Assembly: GCA_050575255.1 (NCBI GenBank)
Contig: JBNZDD010013567.1
Span: 1,503,163 to 1,567,162, forward strand
DNA: 64,000 nucleotides
Reading direction: 5' to 3'
Source of the DNA: Harriotta raleighana
Taxonomy: Eukaryota
Positions 28,801-31,800 of the stretch are shown in pieces. The translations under genes and the position numbers were made by a program. Within the stretch, counting starts at the first letter, position 1; each line of letters starts with the position of its first letter. Under the pieces are notes generated by a model that was not told the origin of the DNA, made no database searches, and saw only the letters and a program-made list of their open reading frames with translations.

Positions 28801-31800
28801 CGGCAAGCCAAAATACCTGCACAGTACTCTTGTACAATGTCGATTCATTAAATGCGCCACCACTATTCTGCCGGATAATTTCCGGTTTATCGGATGGGGA
28901 CTTTTTTTTGACGTGCCGGATATACGGAAGTTCCGGTTCATCAAGTCATGGATAAACAGGCTAATTTTCGGTAGCGTAGGCGTATGTAGGCTCTAAATGT
29001 CCAGTATTCTTGCGCGGATTCGCTTAACATCGTTTTGCTTAAAGTCACACTTTTCATGAACACAACTGACATTAAGCAAGGATTAATTGTACAAAAAAAT
29101 AATAATTTGCAGTTTCTCCAACAGTGTTTAGAATTCAACATTGACTAAACAAACTCCAGGTATACCTACCATGACAACAGCATCAGGTTCATAGGGAACA
29201 TTGTAGTTCTTGGCTATCTCAATTAAGTATCGCTCAACCAGGATTTTTGGTGGTGCCTCCACACTTAGCTTGTGCATAAGCTAGAAAGGGTCAACAAATA
29301 TTTGAAAACCATGTGACTAGGATGAAAAGATTAGGACCATCTTACATATAATTGCTAACCAGTTACAAATCTAGCTGATGATCAACAGCTAAAGACCTAA
29401 ATGCCCAATTACCAGCATTATCCCAGATTCTCACTAAAATGCAGAAAGATTCAATAGATTTCTTTAACAAGTTATTATACTTATATAATTTCCATGCATT
29501 ACACATTCTTTAAACAGTAAAACATTAGCTGGCTGGGATAATACGCCTTCTCAGATTAATACATGTTCACATTTGGCAGAACAGGTCACTTTTAACATTT
29601 GTATTCACTTAGATGACAGATCCTGGCACCACCCTTCCTCCCTTTGTCTTGCCTCCTTTGTCTGTCCCCGTGAAGTGGTCCGGATCAGCGCCCCACATGA
29701 AAATTGCTTTATAAATACCAGTACTTGTCCTGAAAACAAAACAGGACTTTTACCCTTTCATTCACAGTCCCAATCTGGTTTGTCCTGCAGAGCTTTCCAT
29801 ATTCTTTGCTGTATTTGGCACAGAGCTGGTCTGAAACCTGCAATAAAAAGAAAAATCAACTACAAAATGCACTCAACTCACTGCGAGGGAAGCATGTCAT
29901 TATCAATGGCGCTGTCCTTCAGATAATAGGATAAACCTTGGTCCTGAAAGTGAACGGAGTTTCATCCTAGTGTCCTGGACAACAGTCTACCACATAAAAG
30001 AAAATTGCTCATGCATTTCATGGCTGTTTATCGGAAATTACTGCATGCACATTCACCTACATATACACAATCACTTTACTTTACAGAAAAAAAATCTGTT
30101 GAAGTACAATGAGTAGTTTTGACATAATAATGCACTGTATGAAAAGTAAGGATTTATTATATCTAGATTAGTCATATCATTGTTAATATTTCCATTTGAA
30201 GTCCTTCGGGTTGAAGAAATCACTTAAACATTGCTTTAAAATAAATGATTGTCACTTCTTAATATGGGGCATTTTACATTAATTCATTTTCCCTTCCTAA
30301 TAACACTTCTTTGTTCCATTTAAACAGCGAAGGTAAAATCAAAGATTTAAAAACATACAGACAGATGTATTTTGAAAAATCAGCACCTTGAAGATTTTGA
30401 GCAATTCAGCAATTTCATGATGGGTCACCCAAAAGCAGATTGTTTAATAATGGAATACTGTATGTCAAACACTTTCCTTATGTGCTTCTTAAAACCCTTC
30501 ATCAATTTATTAACTTTCCCTCTGTATCCCTTTAAGTCTGTGGTCACACAATATCTGAAACCTAAGGGATCTGAAAGGTATGTAATCAGATACCAAAGGT
30601 CAGCCCATAGAGGAATGTAGGAGGGATTCTGCATAGTGTACTCCAGTTACTGGAATGACGAGTGCAATCTATTGGAAGAACAAATCGTACTGTTCCCTAC
30701 ACCTGACTGAGAATAAGTGCAATTCTAAATGGGTTGGAGCTGTATATTAACAGTAATTAGGCTAGGAATGTTTACCCAAATAAATTTAGTTACTAAATGT
30801 CAAATATATCTCACATTTTAAAATCTCAAAGAACATTTAGCCATTATCTGAAACTATGCAAACCAAAAGCACCAAAAAACGGATGCAAAACTGACTAAAA
30901 AGGGTTTGTAACAATAAATTGAATGAATACGGTTTCTTATCTTGAAACAAACAGAAAAAAATGTTTTTCTGCAAACCCATGCATGTGAATTCCATGCAAA
31001 AATAAAAGACGTGAGCACAACAACATTGGTCCGTTCCACACACGATCTGTCTCCACTTACTATTTTCAATTCTGTTACTTCACATTGTAACCTTGGGGCA
31101 GCCCAGATCAGTGTTGAGACTGCCTCTGCCAGACCAGGGTCCAGTTCCCTGAGTGAAAAGGGGCATATGGAGACCATAAATCATTTCTAATCTATTAAAG
31201 TACTTACAACTCTGAGTTCCGCTACTTCATGAAGTCGTGGGGCTGCCCAAATCAGAGTAGAAACAGACTCACCCAGGCCTGGGTCAAGCTCCCTAGTACA
31301 TAGGAATAAAATAAGGTTGATTACAAATACATTGACAGCCTTCAATTTAGCTACAATTTCCGCACAGCTTCTGCAACACAAAGAATGCAATTTCCACAGT
31401 TTGCAGTTCGCAGTATCTGCTGGAAGAACACTAACAATGTTTCCTAATTAAGCAAATTTTATAGCACCAGCGGTGACAACACAATATTAACAAAGTTTGC
31501 AGGTTCTGTACAAGGACAGAATTTGTGCAGCAACTACTTACTTCATTGATTGAATCAAGCCAAAACGTGCCAGCAACAAATCACAGTACAATTCCAGAAT
31601 CTCCATTGCTTCTACCAAATAGTCCTCACGAATAATATGCTCAACGCGGATTCGAGCCCGTTCATCCTTTCCAGATGAAAGGTAATCTGCAATCTCCTTT
31701 CTGGCTTTCTGCGCTAACTCAGCTGTAACAGAATAACCACACAATGACCAATCAATGTTTTTCCAAGTGGGAAAAGGAAAATCTACACACAGTATTCAGC

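Follow-up and report, generated by a model that had tools for sequence, protein, structure and literature searches.

Can a vertebrate ESCRT-III gene carry two versions of one core exon, and if so, what would keep both from entering the same mRNA? IST1 encodes an ESCRT-III protein that pinches membranes. The IST1 gene of the chimaera Harriotta raleighana raises this question, because two similar exons, termed A and B here, lie in tandem within its coding region. The evidence presented below makes it likely that an exon encoding helix 3 and the helix 3-4 loop was duplicated before chimaeras separated from sharks and rays, and that the two copies are spliced either/or, with the 59-nt spacer as the likely reason why A and B are not joined. 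Exon A is probably the default and exon B a minor, regulated form.

The exon pair in the Harriotta IST1 gene

The window, the whole 64,000-nt stretch of Harriotta DNA that was analysed, contains IST1 on its reverse strand. The exon model yields isoforms of 359 aa with exon A and 360 aa with exon B (Table 1). The B form and isoform X2 of Callorhinchus milii share 344 of 358 aligned residues. None of the 14 differences falls within residues 1-196, the exon B peptide is identical in the two species, and the Harriotta tail contains a 2-residue insertion. The features of the IST1 family are present, namely the Ist1 domain (Pfam PF03398, E 2.5e-63 on C. milii X2), a closed helical core in a model of C. 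milii X1, and the C-terminal motif.

Both exons have an AG acceptor and a GTAAGT donor, and both are entered in phase 2 and left in phase 0. The Lys90 codon straddles the upstream junction and is completed as Lys by A and B alike. By alignment, the peptide of the pair corresponds to residues 91-119 of human IST1 (PDB 3FRR, 3JC1, 6TZ4, 13GH), to which the exon B peptide aligns without gaps. In the 1.1-Gb genome the 29-aa exon peptide matches two places only, which are A and B (E 4e-12 and 1.1e-5), and the same search found no second IST1 locus. The coordinates, the lengths of 85 and 88 nt, the peptides, splice sites, phases and spacer length given in a preliminary description of this DNA were all reproduced. 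The tandem duplicated exon pair is real and not a product of chance.

Table 1. Features of IST1 and its surroundings, in window positions
Feature	Position	Strand	Remarks
IST1 coding span	25633..32284	-	modelled with GT-AG sites; each isoform has 9 coding exons
Upstream common exon	31542..31722	-	181 nt; phase 2 end inside Lys90 codon; joined to A or to B in relative's contigs
Exon A, proximal copy	31208..31292	-	85 nt, 28 aa; Ser99 type; prevailing form in relatives
His codon of exon A	31229..31231	-	relatives have two codons there (Gln111, Ser/Asn/Thr112): in-frame 3-nt loss
A-B spacer	31149..31207	-	59 nt; in-frame stop when retained
Exon B, distal copy	31061..31148	-	88 nt, 29 aa; probably the minor form, Ala99/Lys118/Ile119 type
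Two TGCATG, RBFOX-type candidate motifs	30978..30998	-	63 and 78 nt past B donor
Downstream common exon	29754..29837	-	84 nt, phase 0; A and B joints to this exon in relative's contigs
Dihydroorotate dehydrogenase exon	19221-19667	-	IST1 neighbour
Intronless SLC10 (NTCP5/P3-type) frame	42549-44033	+	495 aa; IST1 neighbour
Sulfotransferase frame	53795-55000	-	IST1 neighbour

Occurrence in cartilaginous fishes and other vertebrates

Protein records of both A and B are present in 17 of 23 named cartilaginous fishes (C. milii and 16 sharks and rays); the other six have A alone and none has B alone. These records are mostly automatic RefSeq X1/X2 models, in C. milii XP_007887495.1 (X1, A) and XP_007887496.1 (X2, B), with UniRef entries V9KGJ5 and V9KGW3. 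Equal length and differences confined to residues 91-119 characterise the two proteins in all but one of the 17 pairs (16 of 17); the lengths in the seventeenth are unequal owing to another part of the protein. Several marks are fixed: Ser99 in all 17 A sequences, and Ala99, Lys118 and Ile119 in all 17 B sequences. Form A is isoform X1 in 19/19 records and is the type found in 9/9 Logan-derived proteins. Since A and B records occur in both the chimaera and the elasmobranchs, the pair predates their split, which is dated to 300-420 million years in the available part of PMC6238376.

A 29-aa segment is found in 256 of 273 other vertebrate-type IST1 proteins; 15 have no alignable segment and two are odd gene models. 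Nine protein clusters of bony vertebrates, each read member by member (gar, sturgeons, newt, turtles, lacertids, birds, frogs, salmonids and Xenopus tropicalis; no more than 15 members listed per cluster), contain no same-gene pair and, unlike Harriotta, show one version of segment 91-119. This comparison is one of protein records, which unannotated intronic copies would escape. Two apparent pairs were rejected. The second X. tropicalis version (P0255) belongs to a divergent paralogous gene that is 64% identical overall, and the two paddlefish versions sit on contigs unequal in length.

Selection on the two copies

Exons A and B share 57 of 81 aligned bases. The 27 codons that could be aligned have 17 differences at 22.3 synonymous sites and seven at 58.7 non-synonymous sites (Fisher p 4e-8), corresponding to a pS of 0.76 and a pN of 0.12. 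Synonymous sites are therefore saturated while the peptide is kept, and by this comparison purifying selection holds between the copies. The earlier view of an old duplication with both copies under selection agrees with these values and with the A/B records of the 17 cartilaginous fishes.

The two copies evolve at different rates. Among 16 elasmobranchs the mean divergence per residue is 0.013 in the rest of the domain, 0.067 in A and 0.184 in B, so that B diverges about three times faster than A. Changes in B strike the otherwise invariant Pro108, Leu110 and Gln111, a pattern that is also compatible with relaxed selection. In C. milii, exon A (P0002) carries Thr115 and Lys118 as its exon B does, and Harriotta and most sharks have Ala and Arg at these positions; convergence or gene conversion between the copies may account for this.

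Splicing in a close relative

RNA evidence was taken from contigs of sequencing runs of one close relative, not of Harriotta itself, and the RNA nature of the runs is assumed. Of ten related-organism runs, all with small word shares, four (X1, X3, X4 and X8) were examined. Contigs lose rare forms and hence show presence, not absence. Run X3 contains two 135-nt contigs, each beginning with 17 bases from the end of the upstream exon; one proceeds through A to the downstream exon (depth 125.9) and the other through B (depth 60; joint CT..AC). The CT..AC at the intron ends of the joints identifies spliced RNA. In run X4, which comes from another study, A joints are seen at both ends (299.3 and 375.5) and the bin over B has zero depth; because contigs show presence and not absence, the contrast between X3 and X4 is only a hint of regulation. 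Runs X1 and X8 hold no junction across the pair among the relative's contigs. Run X1 includes an unspliced contig (depth 7.3) that runs from B across the spacer into A, and this contig is gap-free across 30972-31225, so the spacer is equally long in the relative.

The mutually exclusive use proposed in the preliminary description is supported by these contigs: X3 holds both single-exon forms and X4 holds form A, and neither an A-B joint nor a skip of both exons is among the five joints listed, within the limit that contigs lose rare forms. Splicing of each exon singly between the same neighbours is thus seen in the close relative, and also in the protein records of 17/23 species. Taken together, A is probably the default isoform and B a minor, regulated and likely tissue-restricted one.

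Proposed mechanism of exclusion and regulation

In the 59-nt spacer, the adenosines that keep a distance of 18 nt or more to the acceptor all sit within 42 nt of the A donor. In the available part of PMC11291888 the minimal productive donor-to-branch distance is 46 nt and is called critical; that of PMC5740500 sets the steric criterion at a distance below 50 nt, which is present in 9% of human clusters. With predicted branch points, the spacer geometry falls below 50 nt. Crowding of the donor and the branch point would very probably block the joining of A to B. This argument is independent of the CTTTAAT motif, because every possible branch adenosine is too near the A donor. The motif would place a candidate branch adenosine 13 nt past the A donor and 47 nt ahead of the B acceptor, and from this predicted position it could serve B while overlapping the A donor. 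Of the steric mechanism first suggested, the 59-nt geometry therefore stands, whereas CTTTAAT is not a needed element. The block need not be absolute, since a 56-nt human intron gets spliced (PMC8363638, in the part available).

The reading frame would provide a second barrier. Stops are predicted after 140 aa when A and B are both included, in keeping with the frameshift noted earlier, after 114 aa when both are skipped, and after 124 aa when the spacer is retained. All three stops lie 447-649 nt ahead of the last junction, and nonsense-mediated decay would very probably clear the corresponding transcripts.

A possible source of regulation is the TGCATG pair past exon B, which, like the predominance of A over B, has no place in the preliminary description. 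None of the eight other IST1 donors has TGCATG within 150 nt. At the window's rate, two copies in 100 nt have a chance of about 4e-4, a value to be discounted because the motif was chosen after inspection. The TGCATG pair also lies about 210 nt downstream of exon A. Downstream GCAUG usually enhances inclusion (PMC11874969, available part), and tissue specificity, chiefly for nerve and heart, is seen in about three quarters of comparable human events (PMC9741552, available part). The motif pair suggests RBFOX control of B; by binding there, RBFOX may, with roughly even chances, raise B in nerve, heart or muscle.

In the intron past B, a short repeat (29965-30155) draws many unrelated contigs and holds a second TGCATG pair at 30049 and 30015. 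RNA structure was rejected as a switch, as the predicted fold of the region is no more stable than those of shuffled sequences (z -0.94). An inverted match between A and B (31093-31104 vs 31240-31251; 12 nt, 92% complementary) is paired in the predicted fold and arises from a near-palindromic codon stretch.

Consequences for the protein

An AlphaFold2 model was built from an alignment of 60 proteins, with the C. milii A form as a stand-in. The segment has a pLDDT of 97-98 and consists of a loop (89-93), a helix (94-106), a second loop (107-115) and a further helix (116-128). In this model the exon pair encodes helix 3 and the following helix 3-4 loop, and the A/B differences concentrate at residues 94, 97, 99, 100, 111, 112, 115, 118 and 119.

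Published contacts within the IST1 strand involve D77, R82, R55 and E57, and those between IST1 and CHMP1B involve R16, K27 and helix 5 (10.1101/798181, available part). Further sites, from sources seen in part, are the contact helices alphaA and alpha5 and a PIP2 pocket formed by K7, R10, K90, K130 and K134. Residues 91-119 are not among the strand, CHMP1B and PIP2-pocket contacts compared in these partial sources. Since the CHMP1B and PIP2 contacts in these sources lie elsewhere in IST1, the A/B swap probably alters function only modestly and is more likely fine tuning than a partner switch. With about equal odds for and against, the swap could fine-tune how the IST1 hairpin packs at its open end, close to the helix 2-3 loop that faces the membrane. 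The preliminary description was right that the isoforms differ in the helical core, specifically in helix 3 and its loop, but the contacts given in the available parts of these sources make the tie it drew to polymerisation and CHMP1 binding weaker than claimed.

Ancestry of the two exons

Exon B is nearer than exon A to bony-vertebrate segments in 17 of 17 species, which are not independent. In a tree of 29 columns the B exons cluster with the bony-vertebrate exon (support 96/93), and the A exons cluster with P0257, a divergent vertebrate-type IST1. Tree tests reject neither a single clade of all A and B exons nor a single clade of A exons; a duplication within cartilaginous fishes, with a p-AU of 0.17, is likewise not rejected. 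A tentative and rather unlikely interpretation of these trees is that the jawed-vertebrate ancestor had two helix-3 exons in IST1; cartilaginous fishes would have retained both, A being the default and B controlled by RBFOX, and A would have been lost in bony vertebrates including humans. If this were true, the sole human exon would descend from the minor, tissue-regulated copy of sharks. The P0257 protein is 87% identical outside the exon, and its segment bears the A-type marks Ser99, Ile100 and Val119.

Alternative explanations

The difference between 85 and 88 nt given in the preliminary description is not intrinsic to the pair: both exons encode 29 aa in 68 of 68 cartilaginous-fish proteins, and the RNA of the relative carries three extra bases in exon A at the site of the loss. 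Judged from the sequence, the short A may be a true lineage change, a private allele or an assembly error. One could go further and suppose that the codon loss has impaired exon A in Harriotta and made B the main exon, or that the loss is itself an error or a private allele. Such a reading would fit with the observations that every difference between Harriotta and C. milii in residues 1-196 lies inside exon A and that a 28-aa exon A segment occurs in 0/68 cartilaginous-fish proteins and 0/258 other vertebrate-type segments. It is decidedly improbable, however, because the first 60 nt of Harriotta A equal those of the relative, two of its three exon A substitutions relative to C. milii (Ala115 and Arg118) agree with shark A exons, and the loss falls in the modelled helix 3-4 loop, where 29/144 distant homologues are 1-2 residues shorter by pairwise alignment (27-28 residues in the segment overall).

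The faster pace of B, together with its status as the minor form and the lack of a B record in 6/23 species, would be expected if B were a redundant, slowly decaying copy that is spliced by leak, tolerated as long as the fold is kept and being lost in some lineages, with no isoform-specific function. The excess of B over A divergence is seen in 109 of 120 elasmobranch species pairs, although these pairs are not independent, and the missing B records may stem from thin RNA sampling. Over 300-420 million years, B has kept its frame, its length, 17/29 invariant residues in 16 elasmobranchs and its fixed marks, and its peptide is the same in Harriotta and C. milii, which makes simple decay improbable, if somewhat less so than an impaired A. 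Least probable of all is that the pair acts on IST1 abundance, such that a regulated failure to choose (both exons, neither, or a retained spacer) routes the IST1 transcript into decay, with the difference between the A and B proteins a mere by-product. The early stops in all three non-exclusive products and the unspliced contig of run X1 would suit such a switch. Yet the contig may be pre-mRNA or DNA, the five listed joints include no A+B or skip form while both single-exon forms are abundant in X3, and the fixed amino-acid marks point to selection on the proteins. The preferred and fairly probable explanation is an ancient either/or pair with A as the default and B as the minor, regulated form.

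Relation to known exon pairs

Alpha-tropomyosin exons 2 and 3 exclude each other through a branch point near the upstream donor. A branch point near the upstream donor likewise enforces exclusion of OGDH exons 4a/4b (PMC7969005, available part). Both of these systems use a distant branch point in a longer intron, whereas the IST1 spacer measures 59 nt in total and makes a special branch point unnecessary. More generally, vertebrate tandem exon substitutions, as described in the accessible parts of PMC8373072, PMC9741552 and PMC5740500, are ancient pairs of neighbouring homologous exons, alike in length and phase, with conservative differences; one exon is common and the other regulated, and branch-point proximity is combined with frameshift decay. 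The IST1 pair resembles these known substitutions in the adjacency of its exons, their phases and splice sites, the use of each exon singly in the relative, and purifying selection. It differs from the catalogued cases in belonging to an ESCRT-III gene and in having been seen in cartilaginous fishes only.

IST1 is absent from the human list in the supplement of PMC8373072, in which PKM is present as a control, from the accessible text of PMC9741552, and from the accessible text and 10 supplements of PMC5740500. The statement in the preliminary description that human IST1 has a single such exon agrees with the human catalogue searched, which holds no IST1 pair. The X1/X2 models of cartilaginous fishes represent the same pair (X1 = A, X2 = B, differing in 91-119); they are predictions that carry neither an exon-pair label nor a mechanism, and Harriotta A is one codon shorter. 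Among the titles and abstracts listed from openly accessible literature, there was no description of the IST1 exon pair. The concern that the isoforms were already annotated broadly proved half right: automatic RefSeq/UniRef records exist in 17/23 cartilaginous fishes, but no paper was found, and the pair is annotated yet apparently undescribed.

With IST1, an ESCRT-III gene joins the few known to have either/or exon pairs of ancient origin. Helix 3 of IST1 and the loop after it are available in two natural versions that have existed side by side for 300-420 million years and lend themselves to direct comparison in the assays already in use for membrane tubulation and CHMP1B copolymers. The pair is also a small-scale example of likely steric exclusion, with a spacer of 59 nt, and allows a test of how pairs of this kind are lost or resolved. 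Its weight is limited in that the isoforms are already in automatic annotation, the differences are mostly conservative, and a human counterpart was not found.

Surroundings of the exon pair

Two near-perfect tandem doublings, of 140 and 145 nt, lie at 34325-34603 and 35046-35328, adjoining the likely IST1 promoter; each has N near the join, and they are probably scaffolding artefacts. The neighbouring genes are given in Table 1; DHODH and CHST4 are presumably near IST1 in human as well. Within IST1, C. milii also has shorter records, of 343 and 321 aa, that differ around the C-terminal exons 26858-26909 and 27507-27617 (reverse strand), which indicates further alternative splicing in the disordered tail.
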